From Verrucomicrobiota bacterium (lineage in GTDB: Bacteria > Verrucomicrobiota > Verrucomicrobiia > Limisphaerales > JAFMIX01): 29,904 nt of DNA. Positions 6,074 through 22,984 of this stretch are shown one piece after another. The stretch is taken from the NCBI GenBank assembly GCA_026397895.1, contig JAPLTZ010000118.1:1-29904 (forward strand), given 5' to 3'. Under the pieces are notes generated by a model. It was not told where the DNA came from and ran no database searches. It worked only from the letters and a program-made list of their open reading frames with translations. Within the stretch, counting starts at the first letter, position 1. Every line of letters begins with the position of its first letter. Position numbers and translations under genes: made by a program.

Positions 6074-6079
6074 ATTTTC

Positions 6080-6163
6080 AGCCACAGATTTTCACAGATG
6101 AAACACGGATGGGAAAAACTCTGAATTCATTTTATCTGTGTCCATCTGTGTTTATCTGTGGCT
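6080..6163. repeat. Imperfect inverted repeat built from three ~10-nt CACAGAT units per arm
   Basis: Left arm agccacagattttcacagatgaaacacggat (6080-6110). Right arm atctgtgtccatctgtgtttatctgtggct (6134-6163). 23-nt AT-rich loop. The right arm supplies the glutaredoxin stop codon. Confidence 0.85.
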
Positions 6164-6415
6164 TAACTGCTCCCAAAACTTTTCCAGTTCGGGCGGGCCG
6201 AAGTCGGCGAGGATTTTGCCGTCCACCTCGATGACGGGGGCGTAGCGCTGGCCGGAGAGGTTGATCATTTCCGTGAACGCCTTGCTGTCGGCGATGACAT
6301 CGAGCGTCTCGCATTTGATGCCGCGCTCGTTGAGCCAGGCGACGGCTTTGTGACACCACGGGCAATAGGGTTTGATGAAGAGGCGGATATCTTGTGGTGG
6401 CTTGTTCATTGGCAT
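6152..6415 (-). CDS. Glutaredoxin family protein
   Basis: LFIKPYCPWCHKA (CxxC) and LSGQRYAPVIEVDG (cis-Pro motif). 87 aa, alternative start 6409. Confidence 0.9.
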   Translation of the reverse strand: MPMNKPPQDIRLFIKPYCPWCHKAVAWLNERGIKCETLDVIADSKAFTEMINLSGQRYAPVIEVDGKILADFGPPELEKFWEQLSHR

Positions 6416-6418
6416 TAA

Positions 6419-6811
6419 TCAACTGCTCCGGTCTCTTGGAATCTGAACTCCATACTTAACCAAAATATTTGTAATATTACTTTCTAAATCCGTGCTGTGC
6501 CCACTCATGACAATCTCAATCTGTTGAATAAATATGCGGAGATTGGTCATGTAAACGTCTGTCATTCTTTTCCGTTCTACCGTATGTGAAAGATCAGCCA
6601 TGTTGTATGCCAGCAAAGCTATTTTTTTGTATGCCTCATCAGGTATTAGCCCAGCGTTGATAATGGAGTTATTCTGAAGCGACTTCTTTATGTAAGTTTG
6701 TCCTGCCCGAACCGGGTTAGACCGCAATGCTATAAATCCAACCAGAAATTGGAGAACAAACCAACCGATCCAACAGATAACAAGACATGCGACAATGTAT
6801 AATAGAATCAT
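6419..6811 (-). CDS. Low-GC orphan hypothetical protein (130 aa) with N-terminal membrane helix
   Basis: Open frame from ATG 6811 that fills the gcvH-grx gap. N-terminus ILLYIVACLVICWIGWFVLQFLVGFIAL. Hand count 155 G+C in 390 nt (6421-6810), about 40%. Confidence 0.7.
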   Translation of the reverse strand: MILLYIVACLVICWIGWFVLQFLVGFIALRSNPVRAGQTYIKKSLQNNSIINAGLIPDEAYKKIALLAYNMADLSHTVERKRMTDVYMTNLRIFIQQIEIVMSGHSTDLESNITNILVKYGVQIPRDRSS

Positions 6812-6828
6812 GTCCGAACAGAATTTAG

Positions 6829-7212
6829 CTAACTTCCAATCTGCGTCTTGTAGGCTTCCGGCGTGAGGAGGGCGTTGAGTTCCGCCGCGTTGCTCAATTT
6901 GATTTTGTAGAACCAGCCGCCGGCGTAAGGCTCGGTGTTCACGAGCGCGGGGTTGTCGGTGGCGGCTTTGTTGATTTCCACGACTTCGCCGCTGACGGGG
7001 GAGTAGATGTCGCTGGCGGTCTTGACGGATTCCACAACGGCGCAGGATTCGCCGGCCTTCACCTTGCGCCCCACGGCGGGCAGCTCGACAAAGACGATGT
7101 CGGTGAGTTCGTGCTGGGCGTGGTCGGTGATGCCGACGGTGGCGGTGTCGCCGGCGAGGCGCACCCATTCGTGGGACTTGGCGTATTTCAGGTCGGAAGG
7201 AACGTTGCTCAT
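6829..7212 (-). CDS. gcvH: Glycine cleavage system H protein
   Basis: [40 protein letters not shown] (lipoyl-Lys), NTEPYAGGW. Confidence 0.97.
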
Positions 7213-7233
7213 AATGGTTTCAAAAAACTTGTC

Positions 7234-7260
7234 CGCAGATTACGCAGATTGCGCGGATTC
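7234..7260. repeat. Three tandem 9-mers (CGCAGATTN) upstream of gcvH, single arm
   Basis: cgcagatta cgcagattg cgcggattc. No complementary arm seen nearby. Confidence 0.75.
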
Positions 7261-7342
7261 ACAAATCCAATTTTGCCACGGTCGGCGCGGATGTTCACGG
7301 TGGCGGAAAAGCTTCTGGTGTTTCCGGCGGCGGCTCGTTATT

Positions 7343-7379: not shown

Positions 7380-8972
7380 ATGAAGCCGATTGTTTGTGGC
7401 AAATCAACCATCCAGCCTATCCTCATCATGATCACATCCCGCAACCTCTCCAGATTCGTCGCCAAACTGAAACGCCCCGCCGTGTGGCTGGCGGTGGCGA
7501 TGTTCGCCAGCCTGACCGTGGCGTTCGCCGCCGCGCCGCCGCCGAACATCGTCATCATCTTCACGGACGACCAGGGCTATGCCGACGTCGGCTGTTTCGG
7601 CGCGAAGGGATTCGTCACGCCCAACCTCGACCGGCTCGCGCAGGAGGGGCGGAAGTTTTCCAACTTCCACGTCGCGCAGGCCGTGTGCTCGGCGTCGCGG
7701 ACGGCGTTGTTGACGGGCTGTTATCCCAATCGCGTGGGCATCCACGGCGCGCTGAACTCGAAGTCCGGCATCGGCATCAGCGATTCCGAGATGACGCTTG
7801 CGCAGTTGGTGAAGCAGCGCGGTTATGCGACGGCGATTTTCGGCAAATGGCATCTCGGCAGCGAGCCGCCGTTCTTGCCCACGCGCCACGGCTTCGATGA
7901 ATGGTTCGGCCTGCCGTATTCCAACGACATGTGGCCGGAAACCGCCACCGGCAAGCCCGGCAACCATCCGCCGCTGCCGATGTATGAGAACGAGAAGGTC
8001 GTCATCCCCGCCGTCACGCACGCCGATCAGGAGCAGCTCACGACGTGGTATACCGAACACGCGGTGAAGTTCATCGAGAAGAACAAGGCGCGCCCGTTCC
8101 TGCTCTACGTCGCGCACAATATGCCGCACGTCCCGCTGCACGTCAGTTCCAAGTTCAAGGGCAAGACGGCGCGCGGCCTCTACGGCGACGTGATCGAGGA
8201 AATTGACTGGTCGGTCGGGGAAATTCTCGCCGCGCTCAAGAAGAACGGGTTGGAGGACAACACCTGGGTCATCTACACGTCGGACAACGGTCCGTGGCTG
8301 CGCTTCGGCAATCACGGCGGCTGCGCTGACCCGCTGCGCGAAGGCAAGGGCACGGCGTGGGAAGGTGGCACGCGCACCCCTTGCGTCATGCGTTGGCCGG
8401 GGAAAATTTCCGGCGGAAAAGTCTGCGACGACATGTTCATGAGCATCGACCTGTTCCCGACCATCGCCAGGCTCATCGGCGCGAAACTGCCGGAGCATCC
8501 GATTGATGGCCTCGATGTCTGGCCCATCATCGCCGGCCAGCCCGGCGCGAAGAACCCGCATCCCGCCTACTGGTTCTACTACGAGCGCGGCCAGTTGCAG
8601 GCGCTGACGACGGGCGACGGCCGTTGGAAATTGCAACTGCCCCACAACTACGGCTCGCTCGGCGGCAAACCGCCCGGCCACGACGGCCTCCCCGTGCCGG
8701 GCACGAGTATTAAAATCGAGTCGAACGAACTCTACGACCTCGTCAACGACGTAAGCGAGAAGACGAACGTCATTTCGCAGCATCCCGACATCGTCCAGCA
8801 GCTCGAAGCCGAGGCCGAAAAGGCGCGCGTGGAATTGGGTGACGCGTTGACCAAGCGCGAGGGCAGGGGCGTGCGTGAGCCGGGTCGCATGAAATCACCC
8901 GCAGTCTCCAAGCAGGCGGCGCAACTGGGCGACAAGATGGCAATGCGCCTCGCCCAATCCGCTCCGGATTGA
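7380..8972 (+). CDS. Secreted Cys-type (family S1) sulfatase 1; start may be ATG 7428
   Basis: [47 protein letters not shown]. Signal-like segment before the mature domain. Confidence 0.95.
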
Positions 8973-9015
8973 TTTTTTCTGTTGAAATTTCAGTTTGTTT
9001 GAACATTCTAACCAA

Positions 9016-10536
9016 ATGGCACTCCGCTCTGTTTCAATTTTCGTCTTGCTGGCGACAGCCGCCGTGCTGGTCGCGGGTGCCGCCGAAACTTCCGCTCCCA
9101 AGGCATCACCTCCGCCGAACATCGTGTATATCTTGGCCGACGACCTCGGCTACGGCGACGTCGGTTGCTACAATTCGCAGACGAAGCTGCCGACGCCGCG
9201 CATTGACAAGCTGGCGACGGAGGGGATGCGGTTCACCGATGCCCACAGCGCGCCGGCCTGCACGCCGACGCGGTATGGGGTTTTGACGGGGCGATACGCC
9301 TTCCGCTCGCGCGTGCCGGTGCATGTGCTCGGGCCTTACGACGCGCCGCTGATCGAGGAAGGGCGGCTGACCGTGGCGGCGTTGCTGAAGCAGCAGGGCT
9401 ACCACACCGCCTGCATCGGCAAGTGGCATCTGGGTTGGGACTGGGCGTTCCCGAACGGCAACCGCAAGGGCGACCCGGATTTCACCAAGCCCGCCGCCAA
9501 CGGGCCGACGACGCGCGGCTTCGACGAGTATTTCGGCACGGACGTGCCGAATTATCCGCCCTACGCCTTCATCCAAAACGACCGGGTCACCGCGCCGCCG
9601 ACGGCGACGTTTCCCGGCCAGGACAAGGAATATTTTGTCAACCGCGCCGGGCCGATGGTGCCGGGCTGGAAGTTTGAGGACATCATGCCCACGCTCGGCG
9701 CGAAGGTGGCGGACTATCTCCGCGCCCGCGCCGCTGACAAGAAACCGTTCTTCCTCTACCACACGTTCACCATCCCGCATGAACCGCTCGCGCCGACGGC
9801 GGAGTTCGCCGGCAAGAGCGGCATCAACCGCTGCGGCGATCTGATTTTGCAGACCGACGCGGCGGTCGGCGCGATTCTGGACACGCTGGAAAAACTGGGC
9901 TTGGACAAGAACACGCTCGTCATCTTCGCATCCGACAACGGCCACGGCGGGGCGACCGGCGTGCCGGCGTTGCTCGCGGCGGGGCACGACCCCAGCCGTC
10001 CGTTCCGCGGCTACAAGGGCAGCATTTTGGAAGGCGGCCACCGCGTGCCGCTCATCGTCCGCTGGCCGGGCCGGGTGAAGGCGGGGACGGTTTGCGACGA
10101 AGTCATTTCGCTGTGCAGCCTGATGGCGACGTGCGCGGAAATCACCGGCGCGAAAATTCCCGCCCACGCCGGCGAGGACAGTTCGAGCATCCTGCCGTTG
10201 CTGGCGGGGCAGCCGGAGAAATTTCATCCGGTGCGCGCGGCGGAAGTCCATGCCGGCGTGAACGGCTTTGCCGCGCGGCAGGGCGACTGGAAATTTGTGG
10301 AATCGAAGGTCAAACAAACCAATCCCGCCCGCCCGGACGCCTTGGCCGGATTGTATGACGTGCGCCACGATCCGGCGGAAAAGAACAACGTCATCGCGCA
10401 GCACCCGGACATCGCGGCGAAACTGAAGGTGCTGCTCGATCAGATTGTCGGGACGGACGCGGCCCGGCTGCGGAAACCCGGCTCCGATGACGAAGACGCC
10501 GCCGCGCCCGGCGCGAAAAAATCCAAGACAAAGTGA
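9016..10536 (+). CDS. Secreted Cys-type sulfatase 2
   Basis: MALRSVSIFVLLATAAVLVAG signal, PNIVYILADDLGYGD, CTPTRYGVLTG, GKWHLG, FASDNG, RGYKG..LEGGHRVP. Confidence 0.95.
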   Translation: MALRSVSIFVLLATAAVLVAGAAETSAPKASPPPNIVYILADDLGYGDVGCYNSQTKLPTPRIDKLATEGMRFTDAHSAPACTPTRYGVLTGRYAFRSRVPVHVLGPYDAPLIEEGRLTVAALLKQQGYHTACIGKWHLGWDWAFPNGNRKGDPDFTKPAANGPTTRGFDEYFGTDVPNYPPYAFIQNDRVTAPPTATFPGQDKEYFVNRAGPMVPGWKFEDIMPTLGAKVADYLRARAADKKPFFLYHTFTIPHEPLAPTAEFAGKSGINRCGDLILQTDAAVGAILDTLEKLGLDKNTLVIFASDNGHGGATGVPALLAAGHDPSRPFRGYKGSILEGGHRVPLIVRWPGRVKAGTVCDEVISLCSLMATCAEITGAKIPAHAGEDSSSILPLLAGQPEKFHPVRAAEVHAGVNGFAARQGDWKFVESKVKQTNPARPDALAGLYDVRHDPAEKNNVIAQHPDIAAKLKVLLDQIVGTDAARLRKPGSDDEDAAAPGAKKSKTK

Positions 10537-10561
10537 ACGGAATCCCCCAATTTATCCAAAC

Positions 10562-11893
10562 ATGAAAATCAGACTCCCGTCCCTCCTGCTCGCGCTCGCC
10601 ATTGCCGCCGTCAGCGCGGCGCACGCCGCCAAACCGAACATCATCCTCATCGCCGCCGACGACCTCGGCTACGCCGACATTGGCGTTCATGGCTGCAAGG
10701 AGTTCGCCACGCCGAACATTGATTCGCTGGCGAAGAACGGGCTGCGGTTCGCCGCCGGTTACGCGACTTCGGCGGTGTGCGCGCCGTCGCGGGCGGGTTT
10801 TCTCAGCGGGCGCTACCAGGATCATTTCGGATTCCAGGGCAATCCCAAGCACGGCGCGTCGGACTGGGGCTTGCCGTTGGACGAGCGCACCATCGCCGAC
10901 CGTTTGAAAACTGCGGGTTACAAGACGGCGGCGTTCGGCAAATGGCATCTGGGCGAAAAGCCGGAGCAGCATCCGATGAGCCGGGGCTTCGACGAGTATT
11001 TCGGTTTCCTTGCTGGCATGCATGATTACTTCAAGGCCGAAGACCCGAACTGGGGCGCGATCATGCGCGGCCGCGAGAAGGCGGAGCTGAAGGAATATCT
11101 GACGTTCGCCATCGCCAAGGAGGCGTGCGGGTTCATCGAGCGGCAGAAGGACGCGCCGTTTTTTATCTACCTCGCGTTCAATGCGCCGCACACGCCGTCG
11201 CAGGCACCGGAAGATTATCTGAAGAAGGCGGCGCACATCGCCGACAAACAGCGGCAGACCTACGCCGCGATGGTCATGGCGCTGGACGATTCCATCGGGC
11301 GCGTGCTGAAAACGCTCCGCGAAAAAGGGCTGGAGGAAAACACGCTCATCTTCTTCCTGAGCGACAACGGCGGGCCGCTCATCAAGGGCAGCGCGCCGAA
11401 CGGTTCGCGGAACGACCCGCTGCGCGGCGGCAAATTGCAGATGTGGGAGGGCGGCATCCGCGTGCCGTTCATGATTCAGTGGAAAGGCCATCTGCCCGCC
11501 GGTAAAACGATTGCCGAGCCGGTCATCTCGCTCGACATCCAGCCCACGGCCTGCGCGGCGGCGGGCGTGGAGACCAAGCCGGAATGGAAATTGGACGGCT
11601 TGAACTTGCTGCCGCTGCTCGAAGGCAAGGCGGAGCATCTGGCGCGCACGGATCTTTTCTGGAAGTTCGGCAACGACCAGTTCGCCATCCGCGGCGGCGA
11701 CTGGAAACTGGTGAAGGTTCATGCCGACAAGGGATTGTTCAATCTGCCAAAAGACATCAGTGAAACCACTGACCGCACGGCGGAGCAGGGCAAGCTGGCG
11801 GAGGATTTGAAAGCCCGCTGGGATGTCTGGGAAACCAAGAACCCCACCGTGAACCTGAAGGTCGCCGCCGAGAAGAAAGGCAAAGAACAATGA
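10562..11893 (+). CDS. Secreted Cys-type sulfatase 3
   Basis: MKIRLPSLLLALAIAAVSAAHA signal, PNIILIAADDLGY, CAPSRAGFLSG, GKWHLG, FLSDNG, WEGGIRVP. Stop overlaps the next start (ATGA, 11890-11893). Confidence 0.95.
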   Translation: MKIRLPSLLLALAIAAVSAAHAAKPNIILIAADDLGYADIGVHGCKEFATPNIDSLAKNGLRFAAGYATSAVCAPSRAGFLSGRYQDHFGFQGNPKHGASDWGLPLDERTIADRLKTAGYKTAAFGKWHLGEKPEQHPMSRGFDEYFGFLAGMHDYFKAEDPNWGAIMRGREKAELKEYLTFAIAKEACGFIERQKDAPFFIYLAFNAPHTPSQAPEDYLKKAAHIADKQRQTYAAMVMALDDSIGRVLKTLREKGLEENTLIFFLSDNGGPLIKGSAPNGSRNDPLRGGKLQMWEGGIRVPFMIQWKGHLPAGKTIAEPVISLDIQPTACAAAGVETKPEWKLDGLNLLPLLEGKAEHLARTDLFWKFGNDQFAIRGGDWKLVKVHADKGLFNLPKDISETTDRTAEQGKLAEDLKARWDVWETKNPTVNLKVAAEKKGKEQ

Positions 11894-13215
11894 AGCCCGT
11901 TCAAATTCTTTCAACCTTGCTGCTGGCGGTCGTCGGCTGCGCGGCGGAAACCAACAGCGTCACGGCGGAAAAATATCCGGGGCTGGCGAAGGTGATGGCG
12001 CACATCCGCACGGCCTTCCCGCAGACCATCAAGGAACAGAAGGCCGACGCCGATGGCAACATCGCCGTGCCGCATCCCTACACCGCGCCGTGCGCGAAGG
12101 ACACGTTCCAGAACCTGTTTTACTGGGACACCTGCTTCATGAACCTCGGCCTGCTGCGCATCGGCATGCCGGCGCAGGCGAAGCACAACACGGACGACCT
12201 TTTGTTTCTCGCGGACAAGCTGGGTTACGTTCCGAACGCCAACCGTTGGGCGATGACGAACCGCGCACAGCCGCCGCTGCTGGCGTGGATGGTGCGGGAA
12301 ATTTTTGCCGAAACGAAAGACCGCGAATGGCTCCAGGGCGCTTACGCCACGCTGGTGAAGGAGCACGGCTTCTGGACGGAGCGGCGCATGACGCCCGCGG
12401 GTTTGAACCGGCATTTCAATTCCGCGACGGAAAAGCAACTGATGAATTTTTACAATTATCTGGCCAAGGATCGTTTCAAGGGACTGCCCTACACGAACAA
12501 GGCGGACAAGGTGGCGTTCAGCAGCCACTCGTTGAGCGAGGGGGAGACGGGCTGGGACTTCACGCCGCGCTTCGACCGGCGCTGCGGGGATTTTTGCCCG
12601 GTGGATTTGAACGCCAACCTTTATCTCTACGAAACCATCCTCGCCGATTTCAGCAAGGTGCTGGCCAACGGTGCGGAAGCCGGCTGGCGCACGAAGGCGG
12701 AGCAGCGCAAAAAGCTGATCCAGGAATTGCTCTGGAACGACGCCGTCGGCTGCTACACCGACTACGACTTCGTGAACAAAAAGAAAGGCGACGTCGTGAG
12801 CTGCGCCGCGCTGTTTCCGTTGCTGGCTGGCATCGCCACGCCGGAGCAGGCGGAGAAGGTCGTGAAGAAGATGAAGGCGGTTTTGGAATACGACCACGGC
12901 CTGTCCACCTGCGAGCAGCGGACGTGGCCGTTCACCCATCAGTGGGATTATCCGAACGGCTGGCCACCGCTCCAGTGTGTCGCAATTCAGGCGCTGGATC
13001 GTTACGGCTTCAAGGACGACGCGCGCCGCATCGCGGAAAAATACGTCCGCACCGTTATCGCCAACTACGAGAAGACCGGCGACCTGTGGGAAAAATACAA
13101 CGTCGTCAGCGGCACGACCGAAGTGGTGGACGAATACAAGATGCCGCGCATGGTCGGCTGGACGGCGGGCACGTTCGTGTTCGCGGCGGATTATCTCCAG
13201 GCGGACCTGCGCTGA
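11890..13215 (+). CDS. GH37 alpha,alpha-trehalase-like glycosidase, exported
   Basis: FYWDT, VPNAN, NRAQPP, ETGWDFTPRF, PVDLN, QWDYPNGWPP, WEKY, DEY, GWT motifs of GH37. N-terminal signal/lipobox-like LLLAVVGC. Confidence 0.88.
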   Translation: MKPVQILSTLLLAVVGCAAETNSVTAEKYPGLAKVMAHIRTAFPQTIKEQKADADGNIAVPHPYTAPCAKDTFQNLFYWDTCFMNLGLLRIGMPAQAKHNTDDLLFLADKLGYVPNANRWAMTNRAQPPLLAWMVREIFAETKDREWLQGAYATLVKEHGFWTERRMTPAGLNRHFNSATEKQLMNFYNYLAKDRFKGLPYTNKADKVAFSSHSLSEGETGWDFTPRFDRRCGDFCPVDLNANLYLYETILADFSKVLANGAEAGWRTKAEQRKKLIQELLWNDAVGCYTDYDFVNKKKGDVVSCAALFPLLAGIATPEQAEKVVKKMKAVLEYDHGLSTCEQRTWPFTHQWDYPNGWPPLQCVAIQALDRYGFKDDARRIAEKYVRTVIANYEKTGDLWEKYNVVSGTTEVVDEYKMPRMVGWTAGTFVFAADYLQADLR

Positions 13216-13242
13216 CCGGACCGGAAGCGGACAACCAAGCCT

Positions 13243-14524
13243 ATGAAAACAATTCTCTTTTCCGTGTTGATTGCTGGCGCGTTGTGCCGCGCGGAAACAG
13301 TTTCTGCTCCGGCCGCCCCGGCGGAAAAGATTCCGGGCGTCGCCAAGGTCATGGCGCACATCCGCGAGGCGATCCCGCAGACCATCAAGGTGCAAAAGGA
13401 GGACAAGGGCGACATCGTGGGCTTGCCGTATCCTTACACTTCGCCGTGCGCGAAGGAAGGGTTCGTGCTGCTGTTCAATTGGGACACCTACTTCATTGAT
13501 CTGGGATTGCTGCGCATCGGCCTGCTGGCGCAGGCGAAAAACAACATCGATGACCAGTTGTTCCTGACCGAAAAGTTCGGGGCCATGCCCAGCGCCAGCC
13601 GGGTGTCCATGGCCAACCGTTCGCAGACTCCGTTCCTGGCCCTGATGGTGCGCGATATTTTCGCGGCCACCGGCGACCGCGAATGGCTCCGGCACGCCTA
13701 CCCGACGGTGGTCAAGGACTACAACTTCTGGATGACCCGGCGGCTCTCGCCCATCGGGCTGAACCGGTTGCACAACTCGGCGACGACGAACTATCTGATG
13801 TCGTTTTACTCCTATTTGGAGCGCGAGCGGTTCAAAGGACTCGCGCTCACCAACCGGGCGGACAAGCTCGCCTTCAGCAGCCAGGCCTTGAGCGAGGCGG
13901 AAACCTGGGACTTCACGCCGCGTTTCGACCGCCGCGCCGAGGAATTTTGCCCCGTGGACGTGAATGCCAATCTCCACCTCTGTGAAACCACCCTCGCCGA
14001 CTTCAGCAAAATCCTGGCCAACGGCGAGGAATCCGCGTGGTTGGAAAAGGCGGCGAAGCGCAAGCAGCTCATCCAGCAATATCTCTGGAACGAGAAAGTC
14101 GGCTGCTACACGGATTACGACTTCGTGAACCAGAAGCAGGGCGAGGTCGTGAGCTGCGCCGACCGTCAGGAAGATGAGGGCGGCGCTGGAATATGACCAC
14201 GGATTGACCACCTGCGAGAAGGGAACATGGAAATTTGTTTACCAATGGGATCATCCGAACGCGTGGCCGCCGTTGCAGGCCGTCGCGATTCAGGCGCTCG
14301 ACCGCTACGGCTTCAAGGACGACGCGCGCCGCATCGCCGAGAAATATATTCGCACCGTCATCGCCAACTACGAAAAGACCGGCGACCTGTGGGAAAAATA
14401 CAACGTCGTCACCGGCACGACGGACGTGGTGGACGAATACAAGATGCCACGCATGGTCGGCTGGACGGCGGGCGTGTTCATTTTTGCCGCCGATTACTTG
14501 TCCTGTTTGCCTGCGGCGAAATGA
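13243..14524 (+). pseudogene. Second GH37 paralogue, frameshifted at ~14161 by an apparent 50-nt deletion (real or assembly artefact)
   Basis: ORFs 13243-14196 and 14174-14524 are collinear with the two halves of 11890-13215. Seventeen codons of paralogue 1 (12808-12858) correspond to a single nt here. The Gly of TGWD is also absent (13903-13908). Confidence 0.85.
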
Positions 14525-14707
14525 TCCTTCTGTCCGGCGGTTGCGCCTGCGGTGGCAGAGGCTGGCAATTCTTGCACGCGATTTGTCATTCCGTCTATTC
14601 CCCGGCGGCCGGACAAGGGTTCTACTGCTGACCATGAATCACCCCGCAAACCCGTCGTTCGCCAGCCCGTTCGGTGAACCGCGTTTTTCAACCGGCAGGG
14701 CTGTCGC

Positions 14708-15484
14708 TTGAAAAGCCGCTCGCCAGCCAAGCCGGGAAAAGTCGCGCTGGTCACCGGCTCGTCCAGCGGCATCGGCGCGGCCATCGCGGAACGGCTGGCC
14801 GCCGAGGGCTATCTCGCGCTCATCAACGCGCGCTCCGAAAATGCCGGCGCGCGGCGCACGCTCGCCGCCATCCGTGCCGCCGGTCACCGCGCGGAGCTTG
14901 CGCTGGGCGACCTTTCCCAAGTGTCCGAAATCCGCCGCCTGTTCACGGAAATCCGCGCGCGTTACGGGCGCATTGACGTGCTCGTGAACAACGCCGGCGT
15001 CTGTTCGTTTCACGAATGGAACGAAGTCACCGAGGAAATCTGGGATCAAACCCAGGATACCAACCTGCGTGCCGGTTTTTTTTGCACGCAGGAGGCGGCG
15101 CGGCTGATGATCGAGAAGAAAATCGCCGGTCGCATCATGGCCATCAGCTCCATTTCCGCCATCAAAGGCGGCACGGTGCAGACGCACTATTGTCCGAGCA
15201 AGGGCGGCCAGATTTCCATGATGAACGCCTTCGCCGTCTGCCTCGGCGGGCACGGCATCACCTGCAATTCCATCCTGCCCGGCACGATTGAGACGCCCAT
15301 CAACGCCGATTATCTCGCCACCGGCACGAACCGCGCCAACCTCGCCCGCCAGACCTGCGTCGGCTACATCGGGATGCCGCACGATGTCGCCGGCCTTGTC
15401 GCTTTTCTCGCGCGACCGGAAGCGCGCTACATCACCGGCGCTTCGATTCTGGTGGACGGCGGCGAAATGGTTAAACATCTTTGA
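14708..15484 (+). CDS. SDR oxidoreductase, L-rhamnose 1-dehydrogenase (LRA1)-like; start uncertain (TTG)
   Basis: VALVTGSSSGIG, VLVNNAG, ISSISAIKGGTVQTHYCPSKGG (YxxxK), CNSILPGTIETPIN, YITGASILVDGG. Context resembles LRA1 enzymes as I recall them (QTHYTPTKAG). Confidence 0.85.
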   Translation: MKSRSPAKPGKVALVTGSSSGIGAAIAERLAAEGYLALINARSENAGARRTLAAIRAAGHRAELALGDLSQVSEIRRLFTEIRARYGRIDVLVNNAGVCSFHEWNEVTEEIWDQTQDTNLRAGFFCTQEAARLMIEKKIAGRIMAISSISAIKGGTVQTHYCPSKGGQISMMNAFAVCLGGHGITCNSILPGTIETPINADYLATGTNRANLARQTCVGYIGMPHDVAGLVAFLARPEARYITGASILVDGGEMVKHL

Positions 15485-15492
15485 AATCTCCC

Positions 15493-16293
15493 ATGAGCCA
15501 GACCAAAAAAGAAAATTCCGGCGGCCACTCTGTCCGCATGCTGCGCACCGCCGAAATCGAAGTGCCGTGCCCGGAAGTTTACTGGATGGAAGGCTTCGCC
15601 GACTGGACGAAGCTGCAATTCCAGATGGCCGTCATCCGTGCCCACGGCAAAACCATCCTCGTCAACACCGGTTTCCCCGAAGACGTCACGGCGCTGACAA
15701 AAGCGTGGAGCGATTTCCTCGGCCCGCGCGCCACGCTCAAGCGCCCCGACGAATGGCGCACGCAGCACTTGCTCGCCGAAGCGGGCGTTGATCCGGCCAA
15801 GGTGGATTACGTCATCGTCACGCCCATCCAGCTTTACGCCACGGGCTGCCTGCATCTGTTTCCGAACGCCAAGTTCTGCTTCTCGCGGCGCGGTTGGATT
15901 GAAGACATCATCGCGCCGACGTATCCGCACCACGTTCCGCGGCAAGGCTGCATCAGCGACGAACACCTGCGCTGGCTGCAATTTGAGAACAACCAAAACC
16001 TCGTGCTCATGGACGACGTTCACGAATTGCTCCCCGGCCTGACGTGCCGCTGGGTCGGCGTGCATCACCGTTCGTCCCTGCTCGTCGAAGTGCAGACCGC
16101 GCGCGGCCTCGTGATGATGAGCGACTGCGCGTTCCACTACGCCAACATCGAGGAAAACAAGCCGCTCGGCATCGCCGAAAGCATCATCGAGGCGCACGCC
16201 GCCTACGCCGACATCCGCCGCCGCGCCGCCGTGTTCGTGCCGCTTTACGATCCGCTGGTGCAGGAGCGTTTTCCCGGAGGCAAAATTTCATGA
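15493..16293 (+). CDS. Metallo-beta-lactamase-fold (AHL-lactonase-like) protein with degenerate metal motif
   Basis: ILVNTG, GVDPAKVDYVIVT, HLFPNAKF, VEVQTARG..MSD, YDP.V..RFP match the scaffold, but HxHxDH reads PIQLYA. Confidence 0.8.
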   Translation: MSQTKKENSGGHSVRMLRTAEIEVPCPEVYWMEGFADWTKLQFQMAVIRAHGKTILVNTGFPEDVTALTKAWSDFLGPRATLKRPDEWRTQHLLAEAGVDPAKVDYVIVTPIQLYATGCLHLFPNAKFCFSRRGWIEDIIAPTYPHHVPRQGCISDEHLRWLQFENNQNLVLMDDVHELLPGLTCRWVGVHHRSSLLVEVQTARGLVMMSDCAFHYANIEENKPLGIAESIIEAHAAYADIRRRAAVFVPLYDPLVQERFPGGKIS

Positions 16294-17480
16294 GCAAGCC
16301 CAATGACATCATCAAGGACATCCGCTGCGCCGACCTGCAATTCTCGCGCACGCCGGACACGCTGAAAAAAAATCTCTGCACGCCCACGAGCCGGTTCAAG
16401 CACGACCCGCGTTCCCGCAACGCCCAATGGTTCGGTCCGGTCGCGCTGACGCTCGTCGAAGTCGAGACCGCCGGCGGCGAAATCGGCCACGGCACGATCG
16501 GCGGCTTCACGTCGTCCGGCACGGACATCGTCGAGACCTACCTCAAGCCGCTCGCGCTCGGCCACAGCGTTTACGAAACCGAATTGCTCTGGGACAAACT
16601 CTACCGCGCCACCGTGCGCTTTGGTCGGCGTGGCGTGGCGCTGTCCGCCTTGAGCGCCATTGACATCGCGTGCTGGGATTTGAAAGGCAAGTTGCTCAAG
16701 CAGCCCGTCTACAATTTGCTCGGCGGCAAAGTCCGCGACCGCGTGCCGGCGTATTGCAGCCGGCTTTACGCGCTCGAAGATTTGGACGCGCTCGCCGCCG
16801 AGGCGCGCGGTTATGTGAAGCAGGGTTTCCGCGTGTTGAAACAGCGCTTCGGTTTCTCGCCCATTGACGGCACGGAAGGCATGAACCGCAACGTCGCGCT
16901 CATCCGCGCCGTGCGCGAAGCCGTCGGCGACGACATCGAACTCGCCGCCGACGCCTACATGGGTTGGGATTACAACTACGCCGTCGAGATGGAGCGCCGC
17001 CTGCGGCCGTATCGCCTCGCGTGGCTGGAAGAACCGTTCCTGCCGGACGATCTGCAAAGCTACGTCAAGCTGCGCGCCAAGAGCTCGACGCTGATTTCCT
17101 GCGGCGAACATGAATACACCAAGCAGGGATTCAAACACCTCATTGACATCGGCGCGGCGGACATTCTCCAGCCCGACGCCAACCGCGTCGGCGGCATCAC
17201 CGAGATGAAAAAGATTTGCGCGCTCGCCGAGGCGGCGGGCCTCCCCGTCTATCCGCACTCGAACGAGGCGCACAATTTCCACGTCATCGTCTCGCAGCCG
17301 AACTGCCCGCTCGTGGAATATTTCCCCAACGTCGAGCCCGACACCGGCAACGAGTTGTTCTGGAAAGTCTTCACCGGCGAACCGACGGCGGTGGACGGCT
17401 GCTTGACGCCGAGCAACAAACCCGGCCTCGGCATCGAGGTCAACCGCGCCGCCGTGAAAAAGCTCAAGTGGACCGCGTGA
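16290..17480 (+). CDS. Enolase-superfamily acid-sugar dehydratase, L-rhamnonate dehydratase (RhmD/LRA3)-like
   Basis: ATG 16290 overlaps the previous stop. ALSAIDIACWDLKGK, PVYNLLGG, metal ligands DAYMGW / WLEEP / GEHE, QPD, PH, GNELF. Confidence 0.88.
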   Translation: MSKPNDIIKDIRCADLQFSRTPDTLKKNLCTPTSRFKHDPRSRNAQWFGPVALTLVEVETAGGEIGHGTIGGFTSSGTDIVETYLKPLALGHSVYETELLWDKLYRATVRFGRRGVALSALSAIDIACWDLKGKLLKQPVYNLLGGKVRDRVPAYCSRLYALEDLDALAAEARGYVKQGFRVLKQRFGFSPIDGTEGMNRNVALIRAVREAVGDDIELAADAYMGWDYNYAVEMERRLRPYRLAWLEEPFLPDDLQSYVKLRAKSSTLISCGEHEYTKQGFKHLIDIGAADILQPDANRVGGITEMKKICALAEAAGLPVYPHSNEAHNFHVIVSQPNCPLVEYFPNVEPDTGNELFWKVFTGEPTAVDGCLTPSNKPGLGIEVNRAAVKKLKWTA

Positions 17481-17488
17481 CGCAAATC

Positions 17489-18412
17489 ATGGCCAAGAAA
17501 AATCACATCCCCGACTGGCTCACTGGCGTGCTGCCGGTGCTGCCCACGCCGTTCACGCCGCAGGACGAGGTGGATTATACGGCATTGGAAAAGCTCGTGG
17601 ACTTCGCCGCCAAGTGCGGCGTGAAGACCGTCGTGACGCCCGCATTCGGCAGCGAGTTCTACAAACTGGACGGTGGCGAGCGCCAGCGCGTCATCGAAAT
17701 CGCCGTGGCGCAGGCGGCGAAAAGGAAATTGCGCGTCGTTGTGCAATGCAACCACACCACGCCTCGCCTCGCCGCGAAGCTCGCCGCCGAAGCGCGCGGG
17801 TTGGGCGCAGCCGCGGTAGCAACGGCCTTGCCCCGCGCTTTCGCCGCCAGCGAGAATCAGTTGTTCGACTACGCCCGCCGCGTCTGCGATGCCACGGACT
17901 TGCCGGTGATTGTTCAGGACTGGAATCCCGGCGGCAAATCCGCCGCCGCCGCTTTCTTCGTCCGGCTGCATCGCGCTTGCGCAAACTTCCGCATGGCCAA
18001 GCTGGAAGAAGCGGGCATCGGCGCGACCATCCGCGCCATCGCGCGCGAAACCGGCGGGCGCGTCGGCGTGTTGAGCGGCTGGGGCGGCAGCTTCGCCATC
18101 CAGCAGCACGGCGCTGGTTTGAGCGGACTCATGCCGGGTCTGGCGCTGGCGGATGTGTTCGTCCGCATCTGGGCGCAACTGCAAGCCGGCAAGCGCGACG
18201 CTGCGCTCAAACTTTTCTCGGAACTTACGCCCTACCTGCAATTCTCGTTGCAAACCTTCGAGCAATTTCATCACGCCGAAAAAGGTCTGCTCGTCCGACG
18301 CGGCGTGTTGAAGAACGCCATCGTCCGCCCCGTCACCATCGAACTGGACACCGATGCGAAAGCCTATCTCGATCTACTGACCACACGCCTGCTCATCACA
18401 ATCAAAAAATAA
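17489..18412 (+). CDS. DapA/NAL-family (class I) aldolase-like protein, candidate 2-keto-3-deoxy-sugar acid aldolase
   Basis: GVLPVLPTPF...VDY.AL, FGSEFYKL...ER, Schiff-base Lys candidate in MAKLEE, GLMPG. Confidence 0.85.
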   Translation: MAKKNHIPDWLTGVLPVLPTPFTPQDEVDYTALEKLVDFAAKCGVKTVVTPAFGSEFYKLDGGERQRVIEIAVAQAAKRKLRVVVQCNHTTPRLAAKLAAEARGLGAAAVATALPRAFAASENQLFDYARRVCDATDLPVIVQDWNPGGKSAAAAFFVRLHRACANFRMAKLEEAGIGATIRAIARETGGRVGVLSGWGGSFAIQQHGAGLSGLMPGLALADVFVRIWAQLQAGKRDAALKLFSELTPYLQFSLQTFEQFHHAEKGLLVRRGVLKNAIVRPVTIELDTDAKAYLDLLTTRLLITIKK

Positions 18413-18415
18413 TTT

Positions 18416-19522
18416 ATGGATAATCCATTTGTCGGAGTCGGACTGCACGCCGCCGGCGGCGTCGCGCACGGTTCGTTTTACGCGCCGCTGAAAAAAGTGC
18501 GGACGTGGGCGTGGGAATCTGCTTGGTTGGTGCAGGGATTCGCCGCGTGGCTCATCATGCCGTGGCTCGTCTGCTGGCTGACCGGGGCGCATCCCATCGC
18601 CGCTCTCTCGCAATCCTCGTGGCGGACGATCGGCTTCACGTTCCTCTTCGGCGCGATGTGGGGCGCGGGCAGCCTGACTTTTGGTTTGAGCATGCGCTAT
18701 CTCGGCATGTCGCTCGGCCAGGCGGTGGCGCTGGGCTACACCGTTTCGTTGGGCACGCTCGTGCCGCCGCTGTTCACCGGACAATTCGCAACTCTCACCG
18801 GCAACGCCGGCGGACGTGTGGTGTTGCTGGGCGTGCTGGCCTGTCTGGGCGGAATCGGCCTGTGCGGTCTGGCCGGCGTGCGCCGCGAGCGCGAATGCAG
18901 CGGGGCGCGCGTCGGGGCAGGGCGGGCGTCGCTGGGACTCGGCTTCGCGGTGGCGACGTTCTCCGGCATCATGAGTTCGGGATTCGCGTTCGGGATTCAA
19001 GCGGGCCAGCCCATCGCGGAAGCGGCGTTCAAGAATGGTGCGCCTTCAATTTTCAAAAATGGTCCGGTCTTCGTGGTGGTGATGGCCGGCGGATTTCTGG
19101 TCAACTTCCTCTGGTGTCTGTTCCTCGGCCTGCGCAACCGCTCCGTGGGCGACCTCATCGGCCGCAGCAACGGCCAGCAACACGACTGGCACGGCGCTGC
19201 CGGCGAGCAGCACGAAGCCGCCGGCATCATCGGGCGCAATTATCTCTGGGCCGGGCTGGCGGGCGCGACGTGGTATGTGGGCTTCATGCTCTACGGCATG
19301 GGGACGACGTTCATGGGTAAGTATGATTTCACGAGCTGGTCCATCCATCTGGCGTTCGTGATCGTGTTCAGCACGCTGTGCGGCATCCTCGCGCGCGAAT
19401 GGCGCGGCGTGAGCCGGCACACGGCGCTGCTCGTCGCGGCGGCGATGTTCATCCTCGTGTCGTCCACGTTCGTGATCGCAGTGGGCAACCGCATGGCGAG
19501 CGCTGCGGTGGCGGGGCATTGA
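18416..19522 (+). CDS. rhaT: L-rhamnose/proton symporter family
   Basis: GSFYAPLKKVRTWAWESAW, GAMWGAGSLTFGLSMRYLGMSLG, SGIMSSGF, GGFLVNFLWC, about 10 TM helices. Confidence 0.9.
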   Translation: MDNPFVGVGLHAAGGVAHGSFYAPLKKVRTWAWESAWLVQGFAAWLIMPWLVCWLTGAHPIAALSQSSWRTIGFTFLFGAMWGAGSLTFGLSMRYLGMSLGQAVALGYTVSLGTLVPPLFTGQFATLTGNAGGRVVLLGVLACLGGIGLCGLAGVRRERECSGARVGAGRASLGLGFAVATFSGIMSSGFAFGIQAGQPIAEAAFKNGAPSIFKNGPVFVVVMAGGFLVNFLWCLFLGLRNRSVGDLIGRSNGQQHDWHGAAGEQHEAAGIIGRNYLWAGLAGATWYVGFMLYGMGTTFMGKYDFTSWSIHLAFVIVFSTLCGILAREWRGVSRHTALLVAAAMFILVSSTFVIAVGNRMASAAVAGH

Positions 19523-19528
19523 AGCGGG

Positions 19529-20452
19529 TCAGCGGTTTGCGCGGCGGTTGAGTTGCCGCCGCCACGGCTGCGGGGCAAGACCGGTGAGGGCTTTGAACTG
19601 GTTCGAGAGGTGCGAGGCGGAGTCGAAGCCGAGAATCTCGGCGATTTCCTTCACGGGCTTGGCGGTGTTGGCGAGAAAGTCCTGCGCCTTTTGCAGCCGC
19701 ACCTGCGTGTGATATTGCTTGGGGCTGACGCCGGTCTGCTTCTTGAACACCTGCCGGAAATGGGAGTAGCCCATGTTCAATTCCCGCGCCAGCCGGTGCA
19801 TCTGGAGGTTTTCCTGGCAGCGTTGCGCGAGCAGCATCTGGGCGCGCTGGATGACTTCGTCGGTCTGGCGCTGCTCCTTGCCGCGCGGCGACTGCGCCTG
19901 TTCGATGACGGCGAGCAGTTGCAGGCAGAGCGTGGACAGCACCGCCTGCGCGCCGGGCGAGCTGCGTTGCGCCCACGAATGGCAGCGTTCGAAACAGTGC
20001 AGCACGTCGGGGTTGAGTCCCAGATTCAGCACGGGTTTTTTCGGGGAAATGATTCCGGCGGAACGCGCCTGGTCGAACACGCGCCCCTGGCATTCGATCC
20101 AATGTTCCACCCAGCCGACTTCGGGGTCGGGGGCGTAGCGGTGCCAGATTTCGGGGAACAGGATGAAGAGCGTGCCGGGTTCGATGCGGTAGCGGCGGCG
20201 CGGTTTGCCGGATTCAAACCAGCCGGTGCCTTCGCTGATGTAGAGCATCTGGTAGGCGTGCAGGATGCGGCCGTCCGCCCAGTCGAAATGATGATCCACC
20301 GGGTGCCGCAGGACGGGATACGGCCGGCACGGTGGCAGGGTGCGGGCGTAGCCGGTGGAGGTGACGGTGCCGCCCCACGGAAAAGTCCGGTTCGCCGGCA
20401 GGTAAACGAAATAGTCTTTCTGAAAACTTTTCACGGGTGGCAGAATTTGCAT
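19529..20452 (-). CDS. AraC family transcriptional regulator
   Basis: Start ATG 20452. Cupin-like GRIL..YQMLYI..G.G.F..PEIWHRY.P, and C-terminal double HTH LARELNMGYSHFRQVFKKQTGVSPKQY...EIAEILGFDSASHLSNQFK. Confidence 0.95.
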   Translation of the reverse strand: MQILPPVKSFQKDYFVYLPANRTFPWGGTVTSTGYARTLPPCRPYPVLRHPVDHHFDWADGRILHAYQMLYISEGTGWFESGKPRRRYRIEPGTLFILFPEIWHRYAPDPEVGWVEHWIECQGRVFDQARSAGIISPKKPVLNLGLNPDVLHCFERCHSWAQRSSPGAQAVLSTLCLQLLAVIEQAQSPRGKEQRQTDEVIQRAQMLLAQRCQENLQMHRLARELNMGYSHFRQVFKKQTGVSPKQYHTQVRLQKAQDFLANTAKPVKEIAEILGFDSASHLSNQFKALTGLAPQPWRRQLNRRANR

Positions 20453-20494
20453 GTTTTTCGGCAAACTGTCTATTTCGTAACGCGCGGCATCGGT

Positions 20495-20500
20495 TATTAT
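20495..20500 (+). promoter_or_regulatory. Putative -10 element of sulfatase 4
   Basis: TATTAT exactly 6 nt before ATG 20507. No clear -35, consistent with an activator-dependent promoter (inference). Confidence 0.5.
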
Positions 20501-20506
20501 CGTCCC

Positions 20507-22222
20507 ATGCAAAGCCCCCAGACTGCCTTCCGGCAAGCCGCCCTGTCGCTTGCGCTCGTTCTGCTGGCCGCGCGCGCTCTGCCGGCCAAGGAGACCGCGC
20601 CGGCGGCGCGCCCCAACATCCTCATCATCCTCGCCGACGACATGGGCTTCTCGGATGTCGGCTGCTACGGCGGCGAAATCCAGACGCCGAACGTGGACCG
20701 GCTCGCGGCGAACGGGCTGCGCTTCACGCAATTCTACAACACCGCGCGCTGCTGGTCGTCGCGCGCGTGCGTGCTCACCGGCTATTACGCGCAGGCCGTG
20801 CGGCGCGATGCGTTGCCGGACGCCGAGCTTGGCGAATTCGGCGAGGGCGGGGCCAAAGGTGGTGGCAACGGCATCCGTCCGCGGTGGGCGCAACTGCTGC
20901 CGGCGTATCTTAAGCCGCTCGGCTATCGCTCGTATCATTCCGGCAAATGGCACGTGGACGGGCTGAACCTTGCCGGCGGCTTCGACCATTCCTATTCGAT
21001 CGAGGATCACAATCGCTATTTCACGCCGAAAAAACATACGGAAGACGATGTGCCGCTGCCGCCCGTCGAGGCCGGCACCAATTTTTACCTGACCACCTTC
21101 ATCGCCGACCACGCGATCAAATACCTCAAGGAACACGCCGCGAAATATTCCGGCCAGCCGTTCTTTGAATACCTCGCGTTCACCGCGCCGCACTTTCCGC
21201 TGCACGCCTTGCCGCAGGACATCGCCATCTACAAGGACATTTATGAAAAAGGCTGGGACGCCGTTCGCGCCGAGCGTTATGCGCGGCTGAAAAAAATGGG
21301 GCTCGTTACCTGCGACCTTTCCCCGCGCGACCCCGTCGCCGCTCCGCGTTGGAATCTGTCCGAGGCGAAACTGCGCGAGAAAATCGGGCCGGGCGAAGTC
21401 GGCCACGCCGTTCCGTGGGCCAGCCTCACCGCCGAGCAGAAGAAATTCCAGGCCGTTCACGCCGCGATGATCCACCGCATGGACATTGAAATCGGGCGCG
21501 TGCTCGACCAGATCAAGGCCATGGGCGCGCTCGACAACACCGTCATTTTCTTCATGTCCGACAACGGCGCGACCGCCGAGCAGATCATCCGCGGCGACGG
21601 CCACGACCCCGCCGCGCCGGTCGGTTCGGCCAAGACCTTCCTCGGCATCGGGCCGGGCTGGTCCACGGCGGCGAACACGCCGTTCCGCCTGCACAAGTCG
21701 TGGGTGCACGAAGGCGGCATCAGCACGCCGCTCATCGTGCAATGGCCCGCCGGTTTGAAGGCGCACGGTGAATTGCGCGACAATCCCGGCCATCTCATCG
21801 ACCTCGTGCCGACGATCCTCGACCTCGCCGGCGGCAAACAGCCGGAGAAAGTTGGCGGCATGGCGGTGCCGCCGTTGCAGGGCAAAAGCCTCGTGCCTGC
21901 TTTCGCCAAGGACGGCGCGGTGGCGCGCGATTACCTGTGGTGGTTTCACGACGGCAACCGCGCCGTCCGCGTGGGCGACTGGAAGCTGGTGGCCGATCAT
22001 CAGTCGCCGTGGGAGCTTTACGACCTGCGTGCCGACCGGGCGGAGTCGAAAAATTTGGCGGCGGCGAACCCCGGCAAAGTCAAGGAGCTGGAACAGGAAT
22101 GGTTGAAACACGCGAAGGCATTCCACGCGCTCGCGCAGCAAGACCCGCCAGCCGCACCGGCGGGCAAGAAGAAAAACGGCAAAGTGGGCCGGGGAAAAGC
22201 CTCGGAAACAGAAGCCGAATAA
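20507..22222 (+). CDS. Secreted Cys-type sulfatase 4 (arylsulfatase-like)
   Basis: Signal peptide, PNILIILADDMGFSD, RCWSSRACVLTG, GKWH, YLAFTAPHFPLHA, FMSDNG, HKSWVHEGGISTP. Confidence 0.95.
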   Translation: MQSPQTAFRQAALSLALVLLAARALPAKETAPAARPNILIILADDMGFSDVGCYGGEIQTPNVDRLAANGLRFTQFYNTARCWSSRACVLTGYYAQAVRRDALPDAELGEFGEGGAKGGGNGIRPRWAQLLPAYLKPLGYRSYHSGKWHVDGLNLAGGFDHSYSIEDHNRYFTPKKHTEDDVPLPPVEAGTNFYLTTFIADHAIKYLKEHAAKYSGQPFFEYLAFTAPHFPLHALPQDIAIYKDIYEKGWDAVRAERYARLKKMGLVTCDLSPRDPVAAPRWNLSEAKLREKIGPGEVGHAVPWASLTAEQKKFQAVHAAMIHRMDIEIGRVLDQIKAMGALDNTVIFFMSDNGATAEQIIRGDGHDPAAPVGSAKTFLGIGPGWSTAANTPFRLHKSWVHEGGISTPLIVQWPAGLKAHGELRDNPGHLIDLVPTILDLAGGKQPEKVGGMAVPPLQGKSLVPAFAKDGAVARDYLWWFHDGNRAVRVGDWKLVADHQSPWELYDLRADRAESKNLAAANPGKVKELEQEWLKHAKAFHALAQQDPPAAPAGKKKNGKVGRGKASETEAE

Positions 22223-22243
22223 CCATTTCACCTGAAGCTGCCC

Positions 22244-22984
22244 ATGAAAAAATTTGTTCTCGCGGCTTTGCTTTTCAGTGCCGCCGCCGTTGCCCACGCC
22301 GCCGGGGAAAAGCCGTTCACGCCGGCCGCCGACCTGAAGGGCGACTGGAGTTTCACCGCCGACCCGAAGCTGCCGCACGTGCTGCTCATCGGCGATTCCA
22401 TTTCCATCGGCTACACCCGGCTGGTGCGCGCGAAGCTGGCCGGCAAGGCGAACGTCTATCGCCCGACAAAAGGCAAAGGCCCGGAGAATTGCGGCGACAC
22501 GACCATCGGCCTGAACCGGATTGACGACTGGCTGGCCGGACGGAAGTGGGACGTGATCCATTTCAACTGGGGGCTTTGGGATTTGTGCTGGCGCAATCCG
22601 GAGGTGAAAAAACAGGGCGGCAAGGACAAGGTCGGCGGCAAACTTTCCACCACGCCGGAGGATTACGAAAAAAATCTGGAGAAACTGGTCACGCGGCTGG
22701 AGGCCACCGGCGCGAAACTCATCTGGGCGAACACCACCGTCGTGCCCGAGGGCGAAGCCGGGCGCTTCGTTGGCGACGACGAGAAATACAACGCCGTCGC
22801 CGCGCGCGTGATGGCGAAGCACAAGATTCCCACGGATGATCTGCTCACGCTCACGAAAGGATTCGCCGGGAAGTTTTCCAAGGTCGCCGGCGACGTGCAC
22901 TACACACCGGAAGGCTACGAGCGCATCGCCGTCCAGGTCGCTGCTGCTGTTGAAAAGGTTCTGCCCGCCAAAGCCGCCCTGTGA
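22244..22984 (+). CDS. Secreted SGNH/GDSL hydrolase (esterase)
   Basis: Signal peptide, block I LIGDSIS, block III HFNWGLWD, block V GDVHY. Confidence 0.92.
   Translation: MKKFVLAALLFSAAAVAHAAGEKPFTPAADLKGDWSFTADPKLPHVLLIGDSISIGYTRLVRAKLAGKANVYRPTKGKGPENCGDTTIGLNRIDDWLAGRKWDVIHFNWGLWDLCWRNPEVKKQGGKDKVGGKLSTTPEDYEKNLEKLVTRLEATGAKLIWANTTVVPEGEAGRFVGDDEKYNAVAARVMAKHKIPTDDLLTLTKGFAGKFSKVAGDVHYTPEGYERIAVQVAAAVEKVLPAKAAL

Follow-up and report, generated by a model that had tools for sequence, protein, structure and literature searches.

A candidate oxidative L-rhamnose operon with an unusual set of enzymes in a Verrucomicrobiota genome

We analyzed a 29,904-nucleotide stretch of DNA from a Verrucomicrobiota bacterium (assembly GCA_026397895.1), hereafter the window, which is the complete 29.9-kb contig JAPLTZ010000118.1 (C251) of a 3.23-Mb genome in 487 contigs, estimated to be ~74% complete. 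Five plus-strand genes packed at 14708–19522 encode a short-chain dehydrogenase/reductase (SDR), a protein of the metallo-beta-lactamase (MBL) fold, an enolase-superfamily dehydratase, a DapA-like protein, and a RhaT-family transporter, and they probably constitute an operon for oxidative (non-phosphorylative) catabolism of L-rhamnose, a sugar of plants and algae, to pyruvate and L-lactaldehyde. In the route proposed from gene order, family membership, motif content, and conserved neighborhood, RhaT would import L-rhamnose, the SDR would convert it to L-rhamnono-1,4-lactone, the MBL-fold protein would open the lactone, the dehydratase would convert L-rhamnonate to 2-keto-3-deoxy-L-rhamnonate (KDR), and the DapA-like protein would cleave KDR to pyruvate and L-lactaldehyde through a Schiff base on Lys171. 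By sequence comparison, the best named relative of each enzyme either belongs to the rhamnose pathway or is close to an enzyme that does. Tentatively, and with slightly more doubt than confidence, we propose that the operon represents a widespread but sparse variant of the LRA pathway, found in Verrucomicrobiota, Acidobacteriota, Bacteroidota, Planctomycetota, Chloroflexota, and some Proteobacteria, and built on three uncharacterized lineages: an MBL lactonase that dispenses with or has rebuilt its metal site, an L-rhamnonate dehydratase sister to LyxD, and an aldolase from the KdaD lineage with Glu in the role of Tyr.

A preliminary description of this DNA had already interpreted the five tightly packed, co-oriented genes, with one ATGA overlap, as an oxidative L-rhamnose operon fed by RhaT, with an MBL-fold protein in the LRA2 (lactonase) slot. 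The gene junctions and the Pfam and NCBIfam families agreed with that layout, and the route, the RhaT feed, and the MBL slot were retained. Its assignment of the dehydratase to the LRA3/RhmD type was overturned by the tree and the PDB matches described below, and its DapA-type aldolase was retained in part: a DapA-family protein does occupy the last slot, but it is not of the canonical Tyr type and belongs to the lineage of the KdaD dehydratases, with an aldolase function proposed from context. Instead of the two non-orthologous substitutions counted at that time, three parts of the operon (the MBL-like protein, the dehydratase, and the DapA-like protein) are unusual.

The five encoded proteins

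The SDR matched Pfam adh_short_C2 at 178 bits. Among 220 SDR models, the LRA1 model RhamDHLra1 (NF053807) gave the highest score, 257 bits, below its equivalog cut-off of 400, and the next NCBIfam match was the Thermoplasmatales rhamnose dehydrogenase (209 bits). The best PDB sequences were 7b81 and 7do5-7 with 189 bits, compared with at most 153 bits for glucose dehydrogenases. Orthologues with 80–88% identity occupy the same position in five homologous loci (L012–L016), and we regard the protein as a candidate L-rhamnose 1-dehydrogenase of the LRA1-like type. The transporter matched PF06379 at 202 bits (cut-off 27), and its best equivalog, NF010024, scored 363 bits against a cut-off of 468.

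The MBL-like protein had no Pfam match and only weak matches to N-acyl homoserine lactone (AHL) lactonases (E 1e-5). It did not match Amidohydro_2 (PF04909), on which Haloferax RhcC scored 113 bits, and it is an analogue of LRA2, not a member of the LRA2 family. In its AlphaFold2 model (pLDDT 85), the protein is predicted to adopt the alpha-beta/beta-alpha fold of the MBL superfamily; the top Foldseek matches were all MBL lactonases, namely AiiA, AiiB, GcL, AhlX, and 4-pyridoxolactonase, with TM scores of 0.72–0.77 and E values of 1e-13 to 1e-15 against AiiA, GcL, and 4-pyridoxolactonase. These enzymes open five-membered lactone rings. The position of the HxHxDH motif reads P115-I-Q-L-Y-A in the window protein, the last His is replaced by Y256, and only H195/H196 and D215 are left of the metal site. 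Both replacements, P-x-Q-x-Y for HxHxDH and Tyr for the last His, run through the whole, strongly conserved family, together with a new invariant set of NTG, H151, HHRSS, DCAF, and AES, and the motif set looks like one remodeled under selection, not one that has decayed. Weaker and more distant relatives found by profile search carry the full DTG/HxHxDH/GGHT/HDP set. Six proteins (P0276, P0281, P0325, P0340, P0343, and P0389) retain DTG and the final HDP with HxHxDH gone, and may represent stages on the way to losing the metal site. A plasmid search with the MBL-like protein as the query returned only canonical AHL-lactonase relatives of at most 32% identity, and no MBL-type rhamnonolactonase turned up in the limited collection of literature searched.

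The dehydratase matched Pfam MR_MLE_C at 206 bits, in addition to MR_MLE_N, and its best NCBIfam match was L-rhamnonate dehydratase (RhmD, NF011968) with 260 bits, below the 393-bit cut-off. Among PDB sequences, 3stp was the best match with 321 bits, followed by the fungal RhamD (228), the Azotobacter enzyme (221), and E. coli RhmD (184). We take 3stp to be the L-lyxonate dehydratase LyxD reported by Ghasempur et al. 2014, whose residues R179 and H316 fit the numbering of the chain after an offset of 22 tag residues. The segment KQRFGF of the window dehydratase aligns with KSRFGY of 3stp, and PHS and QPD align with PHA and QYD, so the K-x-R motif of LyxD at the end of strand 2 and the His-Asp dyad are both present. 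A tree of 73 rows was constructed, in which LyxD-type genes from a motif scan were compared with E. coli RhmD, Haloferax RhcD, and a Paraburkholderia protein annotated as RhmD; it came from a rapid LG+G4 search, some of its branches are long, and its deep order is tentative. The window dehydratase fell into a 19-row clade (SH-aLRT 100) composed exclusively of proteins from MBL loci. The LyxD-motif clade and a third, small clade joined it (SH-aLRT 93), with Haloferax RhcD and E. coli RhmD both outside this group. E. coli RhmD grouped with acidobacterial dehydratases of MBL loci elsewhere in the tree. Orthology with LyxD was rejected on the sister position of the clade and on identities of 39–47% to 16 LyxD-motif genes (BLAST). 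The dehydratase thus belongs to a separate clade sister to LyxD and is not an RhmD orthologue. In locus L024, an 84%-identical dehydratase lies beside LRA5/LRA6-like genes with no DapA-like gene, and therefore its product there should be KDR.

The DapA-like protein matched PF00701 (DHDPS) at 62.4 bits (cut-off 22.1), and its best PDB matches were the L-2-keto-3-deoxyarabonate dehydratases 7c0c and 3fkk (78 bits). Its K171 is invariant and aligns with the Schiff-base lysine of KdaD. The tyrosine and the GxTGE loop of class I aldolases are replaced: strand 5 reads VIVQDW, with Gln143, and the loop reads AFGSE. The corresponding features of KdaD are ANFSE, VQD, and K-x-E, in which Glu stands in for the customary Tyr (PMC13398020). 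AFGSE and VIVQDW are hallmarks of the KdaD lineage, and the DapA-like family shows Q143 and K171-L-E173 without variation. In KdaD, a Glu-Glu pair (E200/E201 of CnKdaD) serves the deprotonation at C5 (PMC13398020). The corresponding DGEEA of 7c0c aligns with GWGGSF in the DapA-like protein, where the pair has become Ser-Phe, and this change is invariant in the family. Eight KdaD-like proteins that adjoin LyxD genes all keep FDGEE and are only 22–27% identical to the DapA-like protein, which therefore is not a KdaD orthologue.

An aldolase role of the DapA-like protein is favored by substitutions in its slot. An RraA-like protein (PF03737) takes this slot in three loci, and HpcH/RhmA-like aldolases occur in four other MBL loci. 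The RraA-like genes lie at 3487–4329 of L019, 10906–11682 of L022, and 9768–10499 of L024, in otherwise homologous Verrucomicrobiota clusters, which suggests that they encode another uncharacterized candidate KDR aldolase. The same role is favored by four-enzyme clusters such as L031, L040, and L047, which have no other candidate for the last step and no follow-up dehydrogenase, and by the fact that DHDPS-type aldolases end the yeast rhamnose and bacterial fucose routes (PMC11199699).

Conservation of the gene set

The MBL-like protein was used as the probe for homologous loci because it is the rarest part of the operon; a search with the dehydratase alone returned mostly distant paralogues and added little. 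We found 485 close homologues of ~256 amino acids with 51–91% identity, and only 94 matches at E <= 1e-30 among 1.84 billion representatives; 212 species genomes encode the protein. The carriers were Verrucomicrobiota, many Acidobacteriota, Chitinophagaceae, Steroidobacteraceae, Planctomycetota, Chloroflexota, Rokubacteria, and Burkholderiales, with one cultured carrier, Pyrinomonas methylaliphatogenes K22 (L061), and the closest homologues came from Verrucomicrobiota metagenome-assembled genomes (MAGs) labeled Verrucomicrobiaceae and Limisphaerales. The distribution is sparse: among 300 other genomes sampled from the phylum, one had the family, and it was found in none of 36 genomes of the same order and in none of four congeners; the operon as a whole was not found in these four either.

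All open reading frames of 83 non-redundant MBL-family loci were compared by BLAST with reference parts, and 46 of the loci have at least 5 kb on both sides. Among these well-flanked loci, a rhamnose marker was found in 41, an SDR in 38, a RhamD/LyxD-type dehydratase in 34, and a DapA-like gene in 20, and an Amidohydro_2 homologue was found in none of the 83. Recurring neighbors of the MBL-like gene were RhamD/LyxD-type dehydratases, LRA1- and LRA5-like SDRs, LRA6-like hydrolases, rhaM, RhaT, and GH78 or GH106 rhamnosidases. The core of dehydratase, MBL-like protein, DapA-like protein, and RhaT lies beside GH106 in L001 and L002 and beside GH78 with SusC/D in L003–L005. This agreed with two expectations of the preliminary description, namely that the gene set is kept together elsewhere and that the MBL-fold protein fills the LRA2 slot. 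The arrangement exceeds chance because the same gene set was found repeatedly in many unrelated genomes.

Four dehydratase clades and all variants of the downstream branch are found together with the MBL-like protein, whose distribution therefore follows lactone opening, the step that is common to all of them and otherwise lacks an enzyme. This is guilt by association and makes the protein a candidate lactonase, not a proven one. LRA5/LRA6-like genes adjoin the homologous cluster in L002, L013–L015, and L024. In L002, from a Steroidobacter sp. MAG (GCA_036381075), rhaM and an LRA6-type hydrolase (NF053535, 352 bits) adjoin the core. This locus combines two dehydratases, one RhmD-like and one of the window type, with two KDR branches (DapA-like and LRA5/LRA6-like), rhaM, and GH106, and it holds either redundant routes or two modules for different sugars.

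Alternative readings and genomic setting

The preliminary description had proposed looking for rhaA, rhaB, rhaD, and LRA2 in the rest of the genome, where any absence is qualified by the 74% completeness. An rhaA gene (687 bits) was found on contig C124 beside a second RhaT, an FGGY kinase, an AraC regulator, and a class II aldolase. It adjoins a bacterial microcompartment (BMC) set comprising BMC-H, two EutN/CcmL proteins, an aldehyde dehydrogenase, an acetate kinase, a PduS/RnfC-like protein, and an Ldh-like gene (L010 and L011). The locus resembles the fucose/rhamnose microcompartment that Planctomycetes and Verrucomicrobia reportedly possess (Erbilgin et al. 2014), and it could take up the L-lactaldehyde formed by the operon. 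The two RhaT proteins are 42% identical. The phosphorylative route, with rhaA and its associated genes, is thus also present, and the operon is to be read as a second rhamnose route, not as a replacement of rhaBAD. At least eight GH78 genes were found in the genome, and HpcH aldolase and rhaM were not found in the genome search. The best match to the LRA6 model reached 165 bits, a generic FAH level. As for LRA2, the best Amidohydro_2 gene (contig C316) adjoins an aldo-keto reductase outside any rhamnose context and neither supports nor excludes a separate LRA2.

Several of these observations weigh against an L-rhamnose operon with the chemistry proposed here. The genome already holds rhaA, a kinase, an aldolase, and a second RhaT; no rhamnosidase or rhaM lies within the window, where the operon is set amid sulfatases and GH37-like genes; and the SDR, the dehydratase, and RhaT all miss their equivalog cut-offs. 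Five of the seven metal ligands usual for the fold are missing from the MBL-like protein, and we know of no metal-free MBL lactonase. The DapA-like protein is without the Tyr that is catalytic in class I aldolases of its superfamily, its nearest solved relatives are dehydratases, and an aldolase would be redundant in L002 and in the closest relatives L013–L015, where LRA5/LRA6-like genes are present besides the DapA-like gene. Two main doubts remain: which sugar is really used, in view of the rhaA route that exists in parallel and of the surrounding sulfatases, and which reactions the two odd enzymes catalyze.

The second of these doubts leads to an alternative in which the pathway runs as far as KDR, the DapA-like protein is a KdaD-style C4 dehydratase or another non-aldolase, and the MBL-like protein binds, isomerizes, or regulates while the lactone opens spontaneously or by another enzyme. 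The Gln-for-Tyr replacement and K-x-E that the DapA-like protein shares with its solved dehydratase relatives (PMC13398020) would fit such a role, as would the loss of HxHxDH and the last His from the MBL-like protein, and LRA5/6-like genes in L002 and L013–L015 could already consume KDR. We consider this alternative unlikely, because the Glu-Glu pair of KdaD, kept in the eight LyxD partners, is Ser-Phe in the DapA-like protein, and because the clusters show no conserved aldehyde dehydrogenase or other enzyme that would act next. In addition, neither step has another candidate in four-enzyme clusters such as L031, L040, and L047, the DapA-like protein gives way to proteins of aldolase families in other loci, and strong purifying selection acts on the MBL family, whose motifs are remodeled and not decayed.

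The first doubt, about the sugar, corresponds to an alternative that retains the chemistry but directs it to another L-rhamnose-like sugar, such as L-mannose, L-lyxose, or a deoxy or modified sugar from a sulfated glycan, with L-rhamnose itself handled by the rhaA route of C124. The complete-looking phosphorylative set with its own RhaT, the four sulfatases and GH37-like hydrolases around the operon in a window devoid of rhamnosidase and rhaM, the position of the dehydratase clade as sister to the L-lyxonate dehydratases, and the missed equivalog cut-offs are all compatible with it. However, homologous clusters lie directly beside GH78 or GH106 genes, rhaM, and LRA6-type hydrolases, and the genome itself has at least eight GH78 genes, so another sugar appears quite unlikely. 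A Weimberg-type L-lyxose/L-lyxonate pathway as in Pseudomonas aeruginosa PAO1, in which LyxD and a 2-keto-3-deoxy-L-lyxonate dehydratase lead to alpha-ketoglutarate semialdehyde, is suggested by the 3stp match with its common K-x-R, by the match of the DapA-like protein to an L-2-keto-3-deoxypentonate dehydratase, and by the KdaD-like genes that commonly adjoin LyxD genes, but it was rejected as highly improbable on the absent Glu-Glu pair and the rhamnose-specific neighborhoods, in addition to the position of the dehydratase outside the LyxD clade, the distance of the DapA-like protein from the LyxD partners, which keep DGEE, and the lack of a ketoglutarate-semialdehyde dehydrogenase in the operon.

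The open reading frames and junctions of the candidate L-rhamnose operon were read directly (Table 1); the successive junctions measure 8, −4 (the ATGA overlap), 8, and 3 nt. For the MBL-like gene, the ATG at 15493 was preferred over an alternative in-frame TTG at 15481 because the homologues begin at or after the ATG. The GC content at third codon positions is 0.69–0.82 in all five frames, as expected of real genes, and the GC content of the window over all positions is 62%; at 6001–7000 the GC content falls to 0.49, compared with ~0.62 elsewhere. A convergent AraC-type gene ends 6 nt past the RhaT stop, and AraC-type genes also flank homologous clusters in L001, L002, and L012; this gene is a candidate regulator of the operon. 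A scan of the sequence for promoters and terminators found sites no more numerous than in shuffled sequence.

Table 1. Genes of the candidate L-rhamnose operon and the convergent regulator gene in the window
Feature	Coordinates	Strand	Remarks
SDR, candidate L-rhamnose 1-dehydrogenase (LRA1-like)	14708–15484	+	TTG start, TGA stop
MBL-fold protein without HxHxDH, candidate L-rhamnono-1,4-lactonase (LRA2 slot)	15493–16293	+	ATG start, TGA stop
Enolase-superfamily dehydratase, candidate L-rhamnonate dehydratase (clade sister to LyxD)	16290–17480	+	ATG overlaps the stop of the MBL-like gene
DHDPS/NAL-superfamily protein of KdaD-like lineage, candidate 2-keto-3-deoxy-L-rhamnonate aldolase	17489–18412	+	PF00701
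RhaT-family sugar/proton symporter	18416–19522	+	PF06379
AraC-family regulator, convergent	19529–20452	-	Pfam AraC_binding and HTH_18

Three sulfatases and two GH37/trehalase-like genes lie upstream of the operon, and a fourth sulfatase and a GDSL esterase follow the AraC gene downstream. The second GH37/trehalase-like gene is split by a frameshift or assembly error into overlapping frames at 13243–14196 and 14174–14524, which match consecutive parts of PF01204. The block at 7380–22984, with the sulfatases, the GH37-like genes, and the rhamnose operon, has no DNA counterpart in the four same-genus genomes, and the lipA-gcvH flank (5000–7288) is 76–90% identical in these congeners; the operon-bearing block is accessory. 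Sulfatases flank homologous operons in L012 and L026 too.

Relation to known pathways

We rate the operon as a variant of a known pathway, not as a new kind of system. The LRA1–LRA4 pathway of Scheffersomyces stipitis and Azotobacter vinelandii (Watanabe et al. 2008, cited in PMC5674754 and PMC3870299) has the same four slots of dehydrogenase, lactonase, dehydratase, and aldolase; the first enzyme of the operon is an LRA1-like SDR, and yeast LRA4 is a PF00701 protein like the last enzyme of the operon. The LRA lactonase is an Amidohydro_2 protein, whereas that of the operon would have an MBL fold; the operon dehydratase falls outside the RhmD/LRA3 clade; bacterial LRA4/RhmA is of the HpcH type, whereas the last enzyme of the operon is of a KdaD-like lineage without the Tyr; and the transporter of the operon is RhaT. 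The Haloferax volcanii rhc cluster and the diketo-hydrolase branch with LRA5/LRA6 in Sphingomonas share the steps to KDR, and the rhc cluster, unlike the operon, has an Amidohydro_2 lactonase (RhcC) and an ABC transporter. The MBL gamma-lactone hydrolases share the fold of the MBL-like protein, which differs from them in P-x-Q-x-Y, in the Tyr for His, and in its new invariants.

Two pathways for other sugars are also similar to the operon. The L-lyxonate pathway with LyxD and 2-keto-3-deoxy-L-lyxonate dehydratase (Ghasempur et al. 2014, cited in PMC6336799) likewise places a dehydratase with K-x-R and the His-Asp dyad beside a DHDPS-superfamily protein with Gln for Tyr and K-x-E, but the operon differs in its sister-clade dehydratase, in a partner without Glu-Glu, in having no semialdehyde dehydrogenase, and in its rhamnose-specific context. 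The Route-1 L-fucose pathway of Veillonella ratti and Campylobacter jejuni (Watanabe 2020, cited in PMC11199699), with the DHDPS-type L-2-keto-3-deoxyfuconate (L-KDF) aldolase FucH, likewise degrades a 6-deoxyhexose oxidatively in bacteria and finishes with an aldolase of the DHDPS superfamily that yields pyruvate and L-lactaldehyde; the sugar differs. No description of the parts list of the operon was found in the limited collection of literature searched.

The oxidative L-rhamnose route has been regarded as confined to fungi, haloarchaea, and a few proteobacteria (PMC3870299). Annotation pipelines overlook the version described here, with genes that fall below the equivalog cut-offs and a lactonase candidate that has no Pfam family. 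If the proposed functions are correct, genomes would allow one to predict which polysaccharide degraders of soil and freshwater use rhamnose, and two questions would become testable: how an MBL-fold protein without the canonical metal ligands hydrolyzes a lactone, and what switches the DHDPS-superfamily scaffold between C4 dehydration and aldol cleavage.

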